Position numbers and translations under genes: made by a program. Below the pieces are notes generated by a model, which did not search any database, was not told where the DNA came from, and saw only the letters and a program-made list of their open reading frames with translations. From Candidatus Hydrothermarchaeum profundi (GTDB lineage Archaea; Hydrothermarchaeota; Hydrothermarchaeia; Hydrothermarchaeales; Hydrothermarchaeaceae), in NCBI GenBank assembly GCA_002011125.2, contig MTMF02000009.1:936989-1000988 (forward strand): 64,000 bases of DNA, given 5' to 3'. Positions 2 through 5,743 of the stretch are shown here, piece after piece (the stretch's first letter is position 1; each line of letters starts with the position of its first letter).

Positions 2-3000
2 AGAGGCTTGGGCACATACAATTATACGTGGGGATCAAGCTCTAACGAAACGCCTGGAGAGTGGACAGTACTAGTTAGAAACCAATCATCGCCAACGGGG
101 TCTATAGTAGCTCAGTTCAAAATATTTGTGCGTGGGCAGTTGAATGTTACTGCGATATCAGTAAACTCCACATCTCCCAGAGTTGGAGATACATTGCTAA
201 TCAATGCAACCCTTAAAGATCATACAAACGCTCTTGTAGGGAGCACCTCTCTTGGTTCTGGGCAGGTTACAGCGTATATTGTTGGGCCAGGAGAAAATTC
301 TGAGGTTGCCCTTTCGGATGCAGATGATGATGGTTACTGGACCGGAGAGTTCACCCCAAATACCTATGGAGATTATATCATTGTCGTCAAAGCAACAGAT
401 GGCCATAATAAGTGGATTGATGGCAGAGGAAGCCAGAAAATAGCAGTCACAGGTAGTTTTCCATCTTCATTTTTCGGGTCACTCTTTAGGGGAATAATAG
501 GATTATTTATCGTTTTTTGGCTGTTGAGGAGTTCTACAAAAAAAAAGTTTAGTATCTTTTTTATTATAGCGTTGCTGATTCTCGTCGGAGGGGTAAGTGC
601 TATAGATACCGGGAGATATAACATATCTAAGCCTAATTTAGAGATAGAAGGCTCTACTACTGCAAATCAACTTGACTCAACAGCGCGGGGATGCATCACT
701 AGTGTAGATAATTCTTCATGCCATCTTAGGGACAATAATTTTGGTACAGGAGACTATCAACAAAGAGGGACAACAGATTTGAGTGGGGTAACTCATCCAG
801 GTGCTAATAGAGATGTAGCAGGTTTTTTTCCAGACTGGGTGCATATGCATCATGGCGGTAGCAATTGGCCGCAGTGGTATTGGGATATAACAGGGACGAC
901 CGGTAACGATGCTAGTGGACTGGCCAATATAACGTCTCCAAGGGTAAGTAGTTTGGCGAAAGGTAATGGCGATGCGCAGATAGGATCTGGCTTTGACGCG
1001 GCATTTAATAGAACGCATTATGATGCAGATAGAGACGCATATGAATCCTTGCCTTTTCTAGGTCAGCCCTACGATATTGGAGGAAATAATCCTCAAATGC
1101 CAAAAAGCTGTACGTATGGCGCACAACCAGCGTTGGGAGGTGTTGCAGAGCCTTTCCCCGATCAAGAATCTCTAGGATGTCACGGTACTAGAGAGTTAGG
1201 AGATACTCTAGCTAGAGATTACCCGAGAAGCGATAATGTGAACTGTACTGATTGTCATGGCTCTATAACCGTTCAAAGCACCAATACGAAGCATGGTAGT
1301 GTTGCAGGTGCAAATTGCACATCATGCCATAATGCATACTATAATAGTAGTGTTTCCAAATACCAGTTAGATGGTTCTACTAATATAACAGTATATTATT
1401 GTGCAAACTCGACTTGCCATCAATCTTCTGTAATTACTCCATTAAACACTTCATATCTACATGCTGGAAGAGACTGCCGCTATTGTCATGGTCATGGCCA
1501 TAATATAACAAGCACACCAAAAAGCACTCCCTCTCTGTGGTGGAATACTACCTGCGGGAGTCAAGACGATACGTGCCATGGTAGCGGGGCGCCTTCTCCG
1601 AGAAATGTAGGTGTAGTGCAACATAATGTGACAAACCCCTTCTCGTCACCGCCCAATTGTACCGATTGCCATTCTTATACTTCGTCTGCTCATAACGTAT
1701 CCTCTATACCAGCATGTAGCAAATGTCACAACACTACTTCTACTTGGGGAAAAGCAAGAGCAAATCAGAGTGTACCCAACTGGATAAGCTCACAGACAAA
1801 TAACATGACTCATGGCGACCTTGGTAGAGGAAATAGAAGCAATCTCTCCTGCAACTTCTGTCATAATGATACTAGCTATCATTTTCCTGGATATAGAAAT
1901 ACCAACTATGAGACACAGGGATGTAATAATACTTTATGTCATGGTAATGCAAGTAGTTCTCTCATGGCAAGCAATCTGACTCAGATAAACCGTAGTCATT
2001 CTAATCTAAATTGCAAAGCATGTCACAACAACCAGACTATTTATAGCGAGTCTAGTAATAAGACTTTGGGACCTATAACTATAGATACGAATATACATGC
2101 AAGTAATTCATCTTGGCTAATACCCTTCAATGTTACTACTAGAGGATATGTTACGAACACAACATGCCTGAACTGCCATAACAACAGAACCTATATAGAT
2201 CAAAGTCTAAATTGCACTGGGTGTCATGGGATAAATGGCAAGTTAAATGTCCATACAGATCTTAATGTTGAAGCAACTGTTGGAGACGGCATCCACAATA
2301 CTGGAGACTGTGGCGCATGCCACGCTGATCCATCAAGAGATATTTTCGTTAATTTTTCTGCGGTGAATGAGAGTGTTCATCGTAACTTGAATGTGAATGC
2401 CTCGAATTCTACGCCTTTGTCTTGGGGTAATGTTACTAAGGCGTGTTGGGCTTGTCATGGTAATGGCTCGCAGCCTAGTGGGCATCCGAGTAATTATAAG
2501 ACGCCTTGGAACTGTACTTATTGTCATACCCGTAATGCCTCTGGTCTGGGTAATTTTTCTGCTCCCTTGGTGTATGAGCATTTTGATAATGAGAGTACGC
2601 TGGTGAATATTGATATTAATGTCTCGGTTGGCTGTGTGGATTGTCATAATAATAGTGTTGTGGATGCTAATGACACCTTGTATAGGTCTATTGTTCAGAC
2701 TGGGAGGTCTAATGTCTCGCATTATGGTTCTAGTAGTGGTCTTTTGCCTGGTGGTCAGCCTTCTCGTAATTGTACGGCTTGTCATAGGAATCAGACTACC
2801 GCGAAGACTTGGGGGATCCGGGATAGGTATCCTTTCACTAATAATATCTTTGGTAATCGTACTATTAGGCATTCTGGGAATGAGACTAACTCTGATGATT
2901 CCACGTATTGTGTGAAGTGTCATAATACTTCTACGTCTTCTTCTGGCTTTTTTGACGGTAGCCCGGATGTGAGCTTGCTTGTTAATCTGCATTCTGAGCA

Positions 3001-5743
3001 GCTTTTTGGGGCTACGCCTCCGGGTAAGGTTGCTAGCGTGCACTTTTATTTTGACTGGGAGGGTGATGATTCTGCTGAGTATCCTCCTGGTAATGGTAGC
3101 GTGGAGAATAAGGCTTATGAGAGTTGTCCGGCTTGTCATAATAATACTGGTCTTACTGGTGAGGGTGCGGATGCTGCTAATGCGAAGGTTTGTGAGGATT
3201 GTCACGTGATTAATGAGTCTCTCGGTAAGCCTAATGGCCCTTATCCTGGCCCTGTTGGGCCTTCGGGTCCCTTGGTGAATAAGTTTGTGTTGAGGTCTGA
3301 TTATGATAATGCCTCTGTTCCTGTGGTGAAGGAGCATATTAACGCTACAGACTACTACACTGGAACCGAGATAAATGTCACTACTAATCTTTCTGAGATA
3401 TTTGGCAGTACCTTGAAGCGTTCTACTTCTTGTGTCGGCTATAATGCTACCTCTGGCGAGGGAAGCTGTCATGGCGTCTCATGGGAGTTTAGGGGTAGTG
3501 CTGGAAGCTTTTTCGCTTTTAATAGGAATAGGAGCGTGAATGAGTCTAATGCTACTTATCATTATCAGCTTATCGTTGACTATTTGCCTGACACCCGGAA
3601 CTGTACCTTCTGCCATCTTAGCACGGATGAGAACCTTAGAAAAGCCTGGGGAAACGCCACATATATACCAAATAGTACTGTTAGGGCTCACAATGAAACA
3701 AGTAATTCTCAGTGCTATGATTGTCATGCAGGTGGAACAGCTCCATATAATTTCCATACTACTTCAGTTAATCCTGGAATAGGTGGGGCAGACTGTGGAT
3801 CAGCAGGGTGCCATGCGGATTCTTCGAAAAATATCTGGGTTAATTTTTCTGCGGTGAATGAGAGTGTTCATCGTAACTTGAATGTGAATGCCTCGAATTC
3901 TACGCCTTTGTCTTGGGGTAATGTTACTAAGGCGTGTTGGGCTTGTCATGGTAATGGCTCGCAGCCTAGTGGGCATCCGAGTAATTATAAGACGCCTTGG
4001 AACTGTACTTATTGTCATACCCGTAATGCCTCTGGTCTGGGTAATTTTTCTGCTCCCTTGGTGTATGAGCATTTTGATAATGAGAGTACGCTGGTGAATA
4101 TTGATATTAATGTCTCGGTTGGCTGTGTGGATTGTCATAATAATAGTGTTGTGGATGCTAATGACACCTTGTATAGGTCTATTGTTCAGACTGGGAGGTC
4201 TAATGTCTCGCATTATGGTTCTAGTAGTGGTCTTTTGCCTGGTGGTCAGCCTTCTCGTAATTGTACGGCTTGTCATAGGAATCAGACTACCGCGAAGACT
4301 TGGGGGATCCGGGATAGGTATCCTTTCACTAATAATATCTTTGGTAATCGTACTATTAGGCATTCTGGGAATGAGACTAACTCTGATGATTCCACGTATT
4401 GTGTGAAGTGTCATAATACTTCTACGTCTTCTTCTGGCTTTTTTGACGGTAGCCCGGATGTGAGCTTGCTTGTTAATCTGCATTCTGAGCAGCTTTTTGG
4501 GGCTACGCCTCCGGGTAAGGTTGCTAGCGTGCACTTTTATTTTGACTGGGAGGGTGATGATTCTGCTGAGTATCCTCCTGGTAATGGTAGCGTGGAGAAT
4601 AAGGCTTATGAGAGTTGTCCGGCTTGTCATAATAATACTGGTCTTACTGGTGAGGGTGCGGATGCTGCTAATGCGAAGGTTTGTGAGGATTGTCACGTGA
4701 TTAATGAGTCTCTCGGTAAGCCTAATGGCCCTTATCCTGGCCCTGTTGGGCCTTCGGGTCCCTTGGTGAATAAGTTTGTGTTGAGGTCTGATTATGATAA
4801 TGCCTCTGTTCCTGTGGTGAAGGAGCATATTAACGCTACAGACTACTACACTGGAACCGAGATAAATGTCACTACTAATCTTTCTGAGATATTTGGCAGT
4901 ACCTTGAAGCGTTCTACTTCTTGTGTCGGCTATAATGCTACCTCTGGCGAGGGAAGCTGTCATGGCGTCTCATGGGAGTTTAGGGGTAGTGCTGGAAGCT
5001 TTTTCGCTTTTAATAGGAATAGGAGCGTGAATGAGTCTAATGCTACTTATCATTATCAGCTTATCGTTGACTATTTGCCTGACACCCGGAACTGTACCTT
5101 CTGCCATCTTAGCACGGATGAGAACCTTAGAAAAGCCTGGGGAAACGCCACATATATACCAAATAGTACTAAGCAGTCACATTCAACATCTCTAACTAAC
5201 ACAGAGTGTTATGGCTGTCATACCGAGGATAATCAAGCCCCATACAATTTCCATAGCGCTACACTAGCAACCACTAATTGTAGAGGATGTCATTTTAGTT
5301 GGACAACCATGAATAATACGAAGAACGCACCTACTAAATACGTCAATCAGACTCTTTTCAATACGAGCGTGCACGGTAATAGTTCTGTGATAGATTGTCA
5401 AGACTGTCATACAGGAAGCCATGGGACCTTTGAATCTGGTGGTGGTCCAGAAGAGTACACCTGGAAGTGGTGTGAATGTTGTCATACGGTTATGCCTACC
5501 TATGCAAATAAAACTCCAATAATTTCAACTGGGATAGGATTGAGACACAATTTGACGCGAAAGCCCCAATACCTCTATTATAATATATCAGGCACACTTC
5601 AAACTCCTCTAGAGATAACGACTTGTACGACTTGTCATGATTCGACGCTTTATAACAACGCTAAGGCTAATTTCAACCGTTCTGCCTCAAAGGATTGTAC
5701 CTACTGCCATCCTTTCCCAGATAAACTGCCAGGAGGGGACTAA
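2..5743 (+). CDS. Giant extracellular multiheme cytochrome c, 5'-truncated by the window edge; N-terminal Ig-like region, two hydrophobic segments, then a heme array
   Basis: Frame is open from position 2, so the true start is probably upstream of the window. By-eye count: 33 CxxCH, 3 CX4CH, 1 CX6CH, 1 CX8CH, 2 CX11CH. Very many N-X-S/T sequons. Confidence 0.92.
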   Translation, partial: RGLGTYNYTWGSSSNETPGEWTVLVRNQSSPTGSIVAQFKIFVRGQLNVTAISVNSTSPRVGDTLLINATLKDHTNALVGSTSLGSGQVTAYIVGPGENSEVALSDADDDGYWTGEFTPNTYGDYIIVVKATDGHNKWIDGRGSQKIAVTGSFPSSFFGSLFRGIIGLFIVFWLLRSSTKKKFSIFFIIALLILVGGVSAIDTGRYNISKPNLEIEGSTTANQLDSTARGCITSVDNSSCHLRDNNFGTGDYQQRGTTDLSGVTHPGANRDVAGFFPDWVHMHHGGSNWPQWYWDITGTTGNDASGLANITSPRVSSLAKGNGDAQIGSGFDAAFNRTHYDADRDAYESLPFLGQPYDIGGNNPQMPKSCTYGAQPALGGVAEPFPDQESLGCHGTRELGDTLARDYPRSDNVNCTDCHGSITVQSTNTKHGSVAGANCTSCHNAYYNSSVSKYQLDGSTNITVYYCANSTCHQSSVITPLNTSYLHAGRDCRYCHGHGHNITSTPKSTPSLWWNTTCGSQDDTCHGSGAPSPRNVGVVQHNVTNPFSSPPNCTDCHSYTSSAHNVSSIPACSKCHNTTSTWGKARANQSVPNWISSQTNNMTHGDLGRGNRSNLSCNFCHNDTSYHFPGYRNTNYETQGCNNTLCHGNASSSLMASNLTQINRSHSNLNCKACHNNQTIYSESSNKTLGPITIDTNIHASNSSWLIPFNVTTRGYVTNTTCLNCHNNRTYIDQSLNCTGCHGINGKLNVHTDLNVEATVGDGIHNTGDCGACHADPSRDIFVNFSAVNESVHRNLNVNASNSTPLSWGNVTKACWACHGNGSQPSGHPSNYKTPWNCTYCHTRNASGLGNFSAPLVYEHFDNESTLVNIDINVSVGCVDCHNNSVVDANDTLYRSIVQTGRSNVSHYGSSSGLLPGGQPSRNCTACHRNQTTAKTWGIRDRYPFTNNIFGNRTIRHSGNETNSDDSTYCVKCHNTSTSSSGFFDGSPDVSLLVNLHSEQLFGATPPGKVASVHFYFDWEGDDSAEYPPGNGSVENKAYESCPACHNNTGLTGEGADAANAKVCEDCHVINESLGKPNGPYPGPVGPSGPLVNKFVLRSDYDNASVPVVKEHINATDYYTGTEINVTTNLSEIFGSTLKRSTSCVGYNATSGEGSCHGVSWEFRGSAGSFFAFNRNRSVNESNATYHYQLIVDYLPDTRNCTFCHLSTDENLRKAWGNATYIPNSTVRAHNETSNSQCYDCHAGGTAPYNFHTTSVNPGIGGADCGSAGCHADSSKNIWVNFSAVNESVHRNLNVNASNSTPLSWGNVTKACWACHGNGSQPSGHPSNYKTPWNCTYCHTRNASGLGNFSAPLVYEHFDNESTLVNIDINVSVGCVDCHNNSVVDANDTLYRSIVQTGRSNVSHYGSSSGLLPGGQPSRNCTACHRNQTTAKTWGIRDRYPFTNNIFGNRTIRHSGNETNSDDSTYCVKCHNTSTSSSGFFDGSPDVSLLVNLHSEQLFGATPPGKVASVHFYFDWEGDDSAEYPPGNGSVENKAYESCPACHNNTGLTGEGADAANAKVCEDCHVINESLGKPNGPYPGPVGPSGPLVNKFVLRSDYDNASVPVVKEHINATDYYTGTEINVTTNLSEIFGSTLKRSTSCVGYNATSGEGSCHGVSWEFRGSAGSFFAFNRNRSVNESNATYHYQLIVDYLPDTRNCTFCHLSTDENLRKAWGNATYIPNSTKQSHSTSLTNTECYGCHTEDNQAPYNFHSATLATTNCRGCHFSWTTMNNTKNAPTKYVNQTLFNTSVHGNSSVIDCQDCHTGSHGTFESGGGPEEYTWKWCECCHTVMPTYANKTPIISTGIGLRHNLTRKPQYLYYNISGTLQTPLEITTCTTCHDSTLYNNAKANFNRSASKDCTYCHPFPDKLPGGD
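2348..3679 (+). repeat. Intragenic direct repeat, copy 1 (1332 bp, 444 codons, 8 CxxCH + 1 CX11CH)
   Basis: gttaatttttctgcggtg...ccaaatagtact recurs at an offset of 1491 bp; no differences seen by eye; all-frame ORF translations match. Confidence 0.95.
3839..5170 (+). repeat. Intragenic direct repeat, copy 2
   Basis: Identical to 2348-3679. Confidence 0.95.

Follow-up and report, generated by a model that had tools for sequence, protein, structure and literature searches.

The window analysed here, meaning the whole stretch of 64,000 nt from Candidatus Hydrothermarchaeum profundi, begins inside a long gene on the + strand. The visible ORF (2..5743) contains 33 CxxCH motifs, seven of which fall in the first of the two tracts described below, and 113 N-x-S/T sequons, and it matches the Pfam families Cytochrome_C7 (134 bits), MtrC/MtrF domain II/IV (115 bits) and also Cytochrom_c3_2. 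The CxxCH repeats and the family profile matches classify the product as a multihaem c-type cytochrome. The features of this gene are as follows; NNA denotes codons ending in A, and A3, T3, G3 and C3 denote the bases at third codon positions.

2..5743, + strand: multihaem c-type cytochrome gene, open at its 5' end in the window and about 2035 codons long in the genome
2339..3346, + strand: A3-free tract, copy 1, 336 codons; third positions T 209, G 93, C 34, A 0
3830..4837, + strand: A3-free tract, copy 2, 336 codons; third positions T 208, G 94, C 34, A 0
2348..3679: core, repeat copy 1, 1332 nt, 100% identical to 3839..5170
3839..5170: core, repeat copy 2, 100% identical to 2348..3679
3347..3679, + strand: distal third of the identical core, where NNA codons return (13 of 111 codons), mirrored in copy 2 at 4838..5170
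3680..3838, + strand: linker between the cores, diverged but homologous at the protein level to the left and right flanks, with ordinary NNA use
3363..3382, + strand: variant cluster in run X1, 10 differences (five A>N, no N>A), on the unitig of doubled depth
2333..3472, - strand: antisense ORF in register with copy 1, 379 aa, rich in I, T and R
3800..4963, - strand: second antisense shadow ORF, of the same origin as that at 2333..3472, 387 aa

A recount in the frame of the ORF agreed with the sequence-only reading, in which 336 consecutive codons lacked A at the third position in both copies of the repeat (0/336 twice). Its further observations, that third positions in the tract are mostly T or G and that six AGG codons are kept, were also borne out. 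All Lys, Glu and Gln codons in the tract end in G, and ATA is absent. Elsewhere in the visible part of the gene, 288 of 1145 codons (25%) are NNA, and at this rate the chance of finding none in 336 is about 1e-42. The loss fades as had been described, with seven NNA codons among 96 at 3347-3636, followed by 20 among 64 at 3637-3829 in an ordinary linker. The long antisense ORFs are an automatic by-product of the absence of TTA, CTA and TCA codons from the sense strand. They were rejected as genuine genes, being of low complexity and forced by the lack of NNA codons.

Not one letter differs between the two 1332-nt cores, so that the tracts count as a single observation seen twice rather than as independent cases. 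The 30 nt preceding the core include 10 mismatches between the copies, and the linker and flanks can be aligned only as protein. The core is a homogenised stretch inside two older, diverged tandem modules, and the combination of an identical core with homologous but diverged flanks, both copies being present, is that of a patch of gene conversion or concerted evolution. Homogenisation of the copies had been proposed from the letters of the window, and this proposal holds. Logan contigs from runs X1 and X2, which belong to two studies, reproduced the tract sequence. In these runs the 1332-nt core forms its own unitig at about twice the depth of the flanks (129 vs 69 and 188.9 vs 92.8), and junction contigs in both runs span both sides of the core. 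Both copies are physically present in the DNA. Over-polishing with multi-mapping reads can make patches in paralogues identical, but independent contigs from two studies give the same letters and the doubled depth, and an artefact of assembly, polishing or sequencing would respect neither reading frames nor replichores; we find such an origin scarcely credible.

One short segment of the core varies. In the run X1 cluster at 3363..3382, the five differences that are not A>N are non-A changes. The NNA codons at 3362 and 3371 are gone in this version, and the encoded GTEINVT becomes ATDFTVS. Contigs from run X2 break at the same place. Elsewhere in the genome, no donor was found for either version of these 20 nt, that of X1 or that of the reference.

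The genome (2.19 Mb, 97.65% complete) contains about 11 patch families with a like signature in functionally unrelated genes, as counted with patch criteria that were set after the data had been seen and with all data coming from this one genome. Among ORFs of at least 150 codons, the longest A3-free runs are 336, 246, 203, 199 and 121 codons, and the longest runs without C, G or T at the third position are 119, 75 and 92 codons, respectively. In a crude call of 2271 genes the median A3 is 0.336; five genes are at or below 0.02 and the next lowest is at 0.094. The entirely NNA-free genes are mtmC, mtmB and two small cytochromes. Beyond cytochromes, A3-free tracts lie in genes for MtmB, a corrinoid protein, an FtsX permease, and PAS and GAF kinases, and the suggested tie to cytochrome or surface-protein modules is therefore not supported.

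Nine of the 11 families consist of duplicated patches with identical (209-1332 nt) or near-identical cores, the near-identical exceptions being r670 (1 mismatch in 185 nt) and a GAF pair (99.2% over 259 nt). The assembly has only one copy of each of the other two, mtmCB and a PAS regulator at 568 kb, and the concern that non-repeated genes might often be A3-free was thus not realised. Patches are 0.13-2 kb in size with sharp edges. The tracts span 44-340 codons inside much longer genes and one crosses a gene boundary; that of the small cytochromes begins mid-operon without a promoter of its own and extends 21 codons into the next gene. Across the tracts AGG outnumbers CGG by 38 to 5, leaving A<->C exchange untouched, and TTG outnumbers CTG by 71 to 12, so that synonymous C to T change at the first position is favoured. 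A 476-bp duplicate that is 100% identical (1475556/1858437) is not purged. In a genome scan for non-coding 90-nt stretches with no more than four A or no more than four T, the only match was itself coding.

Two mirror families have T3 close to 0 and third positions rich in A and C. One sits at 1.632 Mb in a + strand gene for a multihaem cytochrome, the other in GAF kinase genes of the - strand. Patches of this M-type include sites at 1.632 Mb and 1.010 Mb. Pooled third positions are A.013, T.505, G.369 and C.113 in the adenine-poor (K-type) tracts, and T.025, A.485, C.374 and G.117 in the M-type tracts. The M-type composition is the exact complement of the K-type composition, and the bias acts on the strand, not on the codon. 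As the mirror families lack NNT codons, codon-level selection is excluded. Adenine is purged more fully than cytosine, with about 1% of A vs 11% of C left.

At codon positions 1 and 2, MtmB retains 293 A, compared with 273-296 in five homologues, and there is no loss; its six lineage-specific replacements give a net A change of 0. The 35-nt spacer between mtmC and mtmB retains 8 A. The K-rich stretch of mtmCB starts about 35 nt upstream of the start codon, past a TATA-like stretch.

The cumulative GC skew of the genome has its minimum at about 0.48 Mb and its maximum at about 1.54 Mb. A gene for Orc1/Cdc6 lies at 482.7 kb, and the adjoining AT-rich region has two 19-nt dyad repeats. The skew minimum, Orc1/Cdc6 and the dyad repeats would together place an origin at about 0.48 Mb. 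In + strand terms, the strand that is free of adenine changes over at the GC-skew maximum. In 19 of 20 patches and 10 of 11 families it is the inferred leading strand that has been purged, though in nine of the 11 families the purged strand and the coding strand are confounded. The sole misfit is the 373-kb copy of the GAF patch, which has the wrong polarity. With a neutral window criterion of no more than five disfavoured letters per 40 codons, all 30 K-type and all seven M-type windows without N fit the polarity; three N-containing windows, which were in both lists and scored as fitting in K and as misfits in M, were dropped. Only 52.8% of genes are co-oriented with replication. Genes on the leading strand have A3.316, T3.325, G3.215 and C3.144, and those on the lagging strand A3.348, T3.298, G3.183 and C3.171. 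The patch bias has the same sign as this mild genome-wide strand asymmetry, and the polarity of the patches is probably due to replication.

We consider the best explanation, with a probability of roughly 0.58, to be concerted evolution of repeats combined with an extreme replication-oriented bias of mutation or conversion, filtered by purifying selection. Repeated gene conversion or re-duplication between the two older tandem cytochrome modules would make the patch, and a strand-asymmetric, replication-oriented bias of mutation or heteroduplex repair would then act on it. On the strand with more G than C, the inferred leading strand, A would become T or G and C would partly become T at silent changes, while purifying selection would preserve the protein; adenine has in fact gone only where the protein is unaffected. 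As the cytochrome gene is co-oriented with replication, this process would read as a lack of NNA codons; in genes on the opposite strand the same process would read as a lack of NNT codons. The strand-biased gene conversion under purifying selection that the sequence-only reading had offered is close to this explanation; the route via a reverse transcriptase (RT), offered with it, is not supported. The MtmB counts weigh against the explanation, in that a purely mutational pressure able to clear about 125 A3 sites would be expected to alter the protein as well. Also against it stand the 8 A of the mtmC-mtmB spacer, the fuller purge of A than of C, the two single-copy families, the wrong polarity of the 373-kb patch, the unpurged 476-bp duplicate, the confounding of purged and coding strand in nine of 11 families, the choice of criteria after the data had been seen in a single genome, and the lack of such a tract in a 620-kb contig of a same-order relative.

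Two candidate causes may be considered. In one, repeats would switch templates or form heteroduplexes, with NucS/EndoMS acting as the filter; in the other, the lagging-strand template would stay single-stranded for long at repeats, where adenine would be lost or deaminated. A profile search of the genome detected NucS_C (82 bits) and only a weak match to MutS_V. EndoMS is reported to cut G/T, G/G and T/T mismatches and to spare A/A, A/C and C/C (PMC4838380). For a NucS organism, another study reports that A->G exceeds T->C on the leading strand, 48 vs 13, and that both A->G and C->T are in excess there (PMC6159521). The M to K direction of change and the neutrality of A<->C exchange would fit the mismatches to which NucS/EndoMS is blind, but the weaker purge of C would not. 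The much fuller purge of A than of C is predicted neither by an EndoMS filter nor by simple hydrolytic chemistry; the filter model treats A and C symmetrically, and C deaminates faster than A by hydrolysis. Active, replication-coupled rewriting of recombining repeats, in which adenines of the lagging-strand template are replaced when paralogues exchange strands at the fork, so that all silent sites of kilobase patches are recoded and the copies stay identical, is a possibility that we take seriously but hold tentatively. The agent might be NucS/EndoMS, cutting selectively by mismatch type, or else an activity directed at adenine in single-stranded DNA.

It is improbable that the patches were imported, through homologous recombination, from a close relative or replicon that is unsampled and has an extreme strand skew, with synteny keeping the polarity. 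Patches of 0.2-2 kb with sharp edges do resemble recombination imports, and mtmB was not found among the 40 relatives searched. Run X4 also has short contigs, 85-90% alike and at high depth, in which one of 13 third-position differences is to A, and a second lineage thus seems to share the A-poor tract. However, no donor was found, and the closest two MtmB homologues (83-84% aa) have A3 of.27-.28; none of the 20 homologues measured, of 78 loci, combined high T3 with A3 near 0. In the 40 relatives, no homologue of the tract exceeds 49% identity, and none has T-rich, A-free usage. A metagenome scan returned no close relative of the tract, only two distant loci (40% and 36% identity). A nucleotide search of 38 genomes of the class returned only the genome's own copies and two short weak matches, one of 41 nt in G019 and one of 86 nt at 71% in a paralogue of the genome studied. 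The sample from a relative in the same order was one contig of 620 kb (G026 contig 2, 51% GC); it has no such tract, its longest A3-free and T3-free runs being 67 and 83 codons, and its sole 1.3-kb repeat, 96.5% identical, is unpurged. We are not aware of any genome in which one base is down to about 0% at the silent sites of one strand. Import would also leave unexplained that nine of 11 families are identical or near-identical duplicates within the genome. The donor with G/T skew that the sequence-only reading had considered a serious alternative was not found, and the polarity follows the genome's own replichores.

A transcription-coupled process, in which the non-template strand is exposed by R-loops or heavy transcription and loses A and C while transcription-associated recombination homogenises the copies, is consistent with 16 of 20 patches and nine of 11 families being purged on the coding strand, and with the start of the K-rich stretch of mtmCB after a TATA-like stretch. 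We nevertheless judge it unlikely. In two Pfam-verified families and in additional M-type windows it is the template strand that is purged, the small-cytochrome tract has the mid-operon position described above, and some of the hosts are sensor kinases, for which heavy transcription would be surprising. Selection acting on translation would call for NNA-free messages that are independent of U34 tRNAs, or that resist a ribosome-dependent nuclease needing A3. C34 tRNAs are present for most codon boxes and some genes are NNA-free throughout, but mirror patches use the opposite codon set, NNA-rich and NNT-free, tracts are partial and cross a gene boundary, and putative highly expressed genes differ in having high G3 and C3, with A3 of at least 0.11. 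We give this very little weight, as the mirror patches already refute it, provided that they belong to the same phenomenon. A tRNA-based explanation was dropped once the mirror patches had been found. The pattern is not the codon bias of highly expressed genes, in which one preferred set is used gene-wide.

Mutagenic copy-back specific for adenine, as in a diversity-generating retroelement (DGR) or by another RT, would account for the base removed, for the homogenised copies and for the five A>N and no N>A differences of the X1 cluster. The 97.65% complete genome has no match to RVT_1 (PF00078), which gave control matches in three of 14 genomes, and none to the Avd-type family (PF05635). None of seven duplicated pairs compared resembles a TR/VR pair in differing at A alone; the cores do not differ, and every kind of mismatch occurs at the edges. 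As RT and Avd genes and such pairs are lacking and AGG is kept (38 vs 5 for CGG), the route by RT that had been put forward for this locus is not supported. In addition, tracts are as long as 1 kb and 2 kb, mtmB has kept its roughly 290 A at positions 1 and 2, the polarity follows the replichores, template-strand patches included, and the other five X1 differences are not changes of A. A DGR-type mechanism is already largely refuted, and we see next to no prospect for it.

The patches share features with several known systems and differ from each. Like DGRs, they involve adenine-specific change and a pair of related repeats, but there is no RT or Avd and there are no A-only TR/VR mismatches, tracts are up to ten times longer, the protein is preserved rather than diversified, and polarity is probably set by replication. 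In gene conversion and concerted evolution, identical cores likewise lie in diverged paralogous flanks, with a fixation-like bias at silent sites only. GC-biased gene conversion favours G:C pairs symmetrically; here much of the change is A:T to T:A, with a bias that is strand-specific and depends on the replichore. Fungal repeat-induced point mutation (RIP) makes C to T changes, ruins genes and drives copies apart. As in RIP, duplicated DNA is altered and the change is strand-coordinated, but here it is A that is lost, genes are intact and copies are identical. In vertebrate mitochondrial DNA, one base is near-absent at the third positions of one strand, which is attributed to the time spent single-stranded. 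The near-loss of one base at third positions of one strand is common to both, but the mitochondrial case involves a whole replicon and a different base, whereas here there are patches and the base is adenine. In replication-strand asymmetry, the leading strand is richer in G and T and poorer in A and C, as in GC and AT skews and in PMC6159521, with a switch at origin and terminus and mainly at silent sites. Unlike replichore-wide skew, the patches are local and tied to identical repeats, and the effect is about a hundred-fold stronger (A3 of 0-1% vs 32% in other leading-strand genes). Among the papers that our literature searches listed, we found no precedent for repeat-directed mutation in prokaryotes, strand-specific biased conversion in archaea, or loss of A-ending codons with concerted evolution.

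If our preferred explanation is correct, the silent sites of recombining archaeal repeats would record the direction of replication with near-digital clarity, and a local process could recode a kilobase and leave the protein untouched. Such patches would offer a handle on the processing of heteroduplex mismatches in archaea without MutS/MutL, and, for uncultured organisms, a way to mark origins, termini and hot spots of conversion from sequence alone. It would also follow that extreme outliers in codon usage need not mean gene transfer or expression level, and long antisense shadow ORFs would be explained. Should active rewriting be the correct reading, it would be a prokaryotic equivalent of genome editing directed at repeats, with the protein spared.

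The window opens within the reading frame of a long cytochrome gene.

Window 2..5743, + strand: ORF for a multihaem c-type cytochrome, with 33 CxxCH motifs in the visible part and Pfam matches to Cytochrome_C7 and to MtrC/MtrF domain II/IV

The sequence-only reading had reported 336 consecutive codons lacking A-ending codons (NNA) in each of two copies of a repeat in this gene, and the counts bear this out. In the frame of the ORF, the third positions are T 209, G 93, C 34 and A 0 at 2339-3346, and T 208, G 94, C 34 and A 0 at 3830-4837. As NNA accounts for 288 of the 1145 codons elsewhere in the gene, the probability of 0/336 is ~1e-42. The reported codon details also hold, namely that Lys, Glu and Gln codons all end in G, ATA is absent and six AGG codons are kept, as do the fade zone (NNA in 7/96 codons) and the normal linker between the copies (20/64). 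Long ORFs in register with the tract on the opposite strand are a forced by-product, because the tract has no TTA, CTA or TCA. The cytochrome (2-5743) includes 113 N-x-S/T sequons in 1913 residues, a load that points to an extracellular protein with heavy glycosylation. Just outside the window, on its upstream side, are related giant cytochrome ORFs at 918-935 kb of contig 9 of the source genome (G000:C9).

The two A-free tracts are a single observation, because window 2348-3679 and 3839-5170 are identical, letter for letter, over 1332 nt. In the 1362-nt repeat found by BLAST, all 10 mismatches fall within the first 30 nt, and the linker and outer flanks can be aligned only as diverged protein, which points to a tandem duplication that is old but whose core was homogenised recently. 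An assembly artefact is very unlikely, because Logan contigs of runs from two studies reproduce the core, its depth and its junctions. The flank contig ends at 2377, the 1332-nt unitig is separate and has about twice the depth of the flank (129 vs 69 and 188.9 vs 92.8 in the two runs), and junction contigs run into the linker and into the downstream flank.

Sequencing runs were also compared with the window. For X1 and X2, from two studies, the flank pieces showed no differences among those listed. On the 2x-depth unitig, X1 has 10 changes within 20 nt at window 3363-3382, the fading edge of the tract; relative to the window, A is replaced in five of them (A>N) and gained in none, and the cluster takes away two NNA codons and alters six residues. 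The X2 contigs break where this cluster sits, and no template for the X1 or the window version was found elsewhere in the genome. X4 yielded short high-depth contigs, 85-90% alike to the tract, in which only one of 13 third-position differences is to A, suggesting that the A-poor tract is shared by a related lineage.

The genome is archaeal, 2.19 Mb in size and 39% GC. In ORFs of 150 codons or more, third positions go without C, G and T for at most 119, 75 and 92 codons, respectively, and the longest stretches without A measure 336, 246, 203, 199, 121, 116, 111 and 104 codons. In a crude call of 2271 genes, the median share of codons with A at the third position (A3; likewise T3, G3 and C3) is 0.336. 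A3 is <= 0.02 in five genes and 0.094 in the next, after which values run from 0.11 upward. High G3 and C3 mark the ordinary low-A3 genes, and T3 > G3 >> C3 marks the special class. The tracts fall into two types, K-type without A and T/G-rich, and the mirror, M-type, without T and A/C-rich.

Tracts purged of A (K-type) or T (M-type) at third positions; positions on contig 9
568.6 kb: PAS regulator, K-type
670.1 and 672.0 kb: two FtsX-type permeases, K-type
939.3 and 940.8 kb: cytochrome of the window, K-type
1028.0 and 1028.6 kb: two DUF1573 proteins, K-type
1125.3 and 1127.2 kb: giant surface ORF and neighbouring gene, K-type
1532.0 and 1742.0 kb: two PAS kinases, inverted, K-type
1823.9-1825.8 kb: S-layer protein, 990-bp tandem, K-type
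1841.4 and 1843.1 kb: two small multihaem cytochromes, K-type
1885.1-1887.2 kb (G000:C9:1885098-1887157, -): entire mtmC-mtmB operon, in-frame TAG at codon 202, K-type
1631.9-1633.4 kb, +: multihaem cytochrome, two identical 336-bp patches, T3 ~0, third positions A/C-rich, M-type
1010.6 and 373.7 kb, -: GAF kinase pair, T3 = 0 over ~50 codons, M-type

No function or cellular location is common to the K-type hosts, and nothing comparable was found in a 620-kb contig of a same-order relative. The giant open frame (~10,835 codons, G000:C9:1094345-1126852, +) presumably encodes a surface protein; a 351-bp module of it has an identical copy in the next gene, A-free at third positions. The genome also carries a tRNA for pyrrolysine.

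C9:1321583-1321652: tRNA-Pyl(CUA)

McrA had no match in the genome. A search of 40 relatives found no mtmB, and the MAGs that hold the closest MtmB homologues (83-84% aa) carry the label Candidatus Hadarchaeota.

In the genome self-comparison, nine of the 11 tract families map onto patches, 185-1362 bp long, that occur in duplicate. Seven pairs were compared base by base; cores are identical (1332, 976, 683, 351, 269 and 209 nt) with mismatches at the edges only, the 185-nt pair has one mismatch, at its third base, and the flanks cannot be aligned as DNA. The mtmCB and 568-kb tracts are single copy in the assembly. Conversely, a 476-bp, 100%-identical duplicate (G000:C9:1475556-1476031 and 1858437-1858912) is unpurged, and purging is only partial in a 120-bp tandem repeat at 1566 kb. 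The unpurged duplicate is a 148-codon gene, with copies in the same orientation on opposite replichores.

Within the tracts, A is removed whatever substitution is required: AAA, GAA and CAA give way to G-ending codons, ATA (48% of genomic Ile) to ATT/ATC, and A at fourfold sites mostly to T. C is lowered but not removed. Exchange between A and C shows no effect (AGG 38, CGG 5, similar to the genome ratio), and synonymous first-position C->T is favoured (TTG 71, CTG 12). Almost none of the purging leaks into protein. MtmB has 7 A at position 3 vs 56-133 in five homologues, 293 A at positions 1 and 2 vs 273-296, and six lineage-specific replacements with a net A change of 0. Position 1 of the pooled tracts shows small shifts in the expected directions, which is weak evidence.

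Pfam confirms the reading frames of both mirror families. Pooled third positions are A.013, T.505, G.369 and C.113 in K-type tracts and T.025, A.485, C.374 and G.117 in M-type tracts, exact complements. Purging is thus a property of the DNA strand, not of codons, and because the compositions are complementary, tRNA supply, ribosome-dependent nucleases and expression level are ruled out as causes. A cause at the level of the gene is also disfavoured, as regions upstream of tracts have ordinary A content and the small-cytochrome tract continues for 21 codons into the start of the gene that overlaps it downstream, keeping to the reading frame although this second gene uses a different one. Two unduplicated genes (C9:343713-344711 and 350228-351448, +), with glycosyltransferase-like neighbours, have T3 of ~8-12% gene-wide and A/C-rich third positions; these could be a milder M-type form or a foreign island.

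The A-free strand is + at 373, 568, 670, 672, 939, 941, 1010, 1028, 1125, 1127 and 1532 kb, and - at 1632, 1742, 1824, 1841, 1843 and 1886 kb. Origin and terminus were placed using the GC-skew extremes, Orc1/Cdc6 and the dyad-repeat region. Along the contig, cumulative GC skew is lowest at ~0.48 Mb and highest at ~1.54 Mb, half a genome apart. A strong Orc1/Cdc6 match lies at 482.7 kb, and the 21-30%-GC region after this gene holds, at the skew minimum, two identical 19-nt dyad repeats 45 nt apart (G000:C9:~484056-484120), which we take to resemble archaeal origin-recognition boxes. This stretch is likely to be the replication origin. A second, weak Cdc6_C match (23.4 bits) lies at G000:C9:1871820-1871993 (+), where the cumulative skew has no turn.

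By criteria set after the data had been seen, and in this one genome, the purged strand coincides with the inferred leading strand in 19/20 patches (10/11 families) and with the coding strand in 16/20 (9/11 families); co-orientation with replication holds for just 52.8% of genes. Only the 373-kb copy of the 1010-kb patch does not fit. Under a family-independent criterion (no more than 5 A+C, or no more than 5 T+G, among the third positions of 40 codons), all 30 K-type and all seven M-type windows fit, though some of the shorter ones may belong to the tails of the general skew. Three N-containing windows, present in both lists as fits (K) and misfits (M), were dropped; windows with N runs (assembly gaps) at C9:363818-364108, 546961-547104 and 712788-713033 trip the scans both ways and were excluded. 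Outside the patch hosts, leading-strand genes (A3.316, T3.325, G3.215, C3.144) differ from lagging-strand genes (A3.348, T3.298, G3.183, C3.171) with the same bias as the patches, in weak form.

The DGR-like, A-specific copy-back proposed from sequence alone is not supported by these results. The genome has no RVT_1 or Avd-type matches, none of the seven compared pairs is an A-only mismatch pair, AGG codons and the position 1 and 2 adenines of MtmB are retained, tracts reach up to 2 kb, and the polarity includes template-strand patches. For its stated alternative, import from a G/T-skewed donor, searches found no donor, and the within-genome duplicates would be unexplained. What is observed is a discrete patch class with identical copies, strand-level complementarity, a polarity switch at the skew extremes and restriction to silent sites. 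Such patches would persist through frequent gene conversion or template switching, with a replication-oriented bias acting during these events.

The bias might come from a heteroduplex filter by NucS/EndoMS, which the genome encodes (the MutS_V match is only weak). According to PMC4838380, EndoMS is efficient on G/T, G/G and T/T mismatches and less so on T/C and A/G, and hardly cuts C/C, A/C and A/A. A nascent lagging strand copied from one repeat would anneal to the lagging-strand template at the other repeat; conversions placing G or T on the leading-strand sequence would then create only mismatches to which the enzyme is blind, and reverse conversions would be cut. This predicts G/T enrichment, A<->C neutrality and identical copies, but not that A is cleared far more fully than C. 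As reported in PMC6159521, the leading-strand spectrum of a NucS bacterium has A->G exceeding T->C (48 vs 13), giving more T and G, the same sign as in the patches here. Alternatively, the lagging-strand template could stay single-stranded for long at mispaired repeats, with adenine lost or deaminated and the gap filled by error-prone synthesis; a Y-family polymerase and endonuclease V are encoded. Such damage is chemically odd, as cytosine should suffer more, and leakage into protein would be expected. Under the filter and the damage route alike, the single-copy mtmCB tract is unexplained without an unseen partner.

Literature searches, at the level of listings, returned nothing pertinent on mutation directed at repeats in prokaryotes, archaeal gene conversion with a strand-specific bias, or concerted evolution accompanied by loss of A-ending codons. 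We rate the phenomenon as an extreme, local form of strand asymmetry and biased conversion, with a fair probability of a distinct mechanism underlying the patches.
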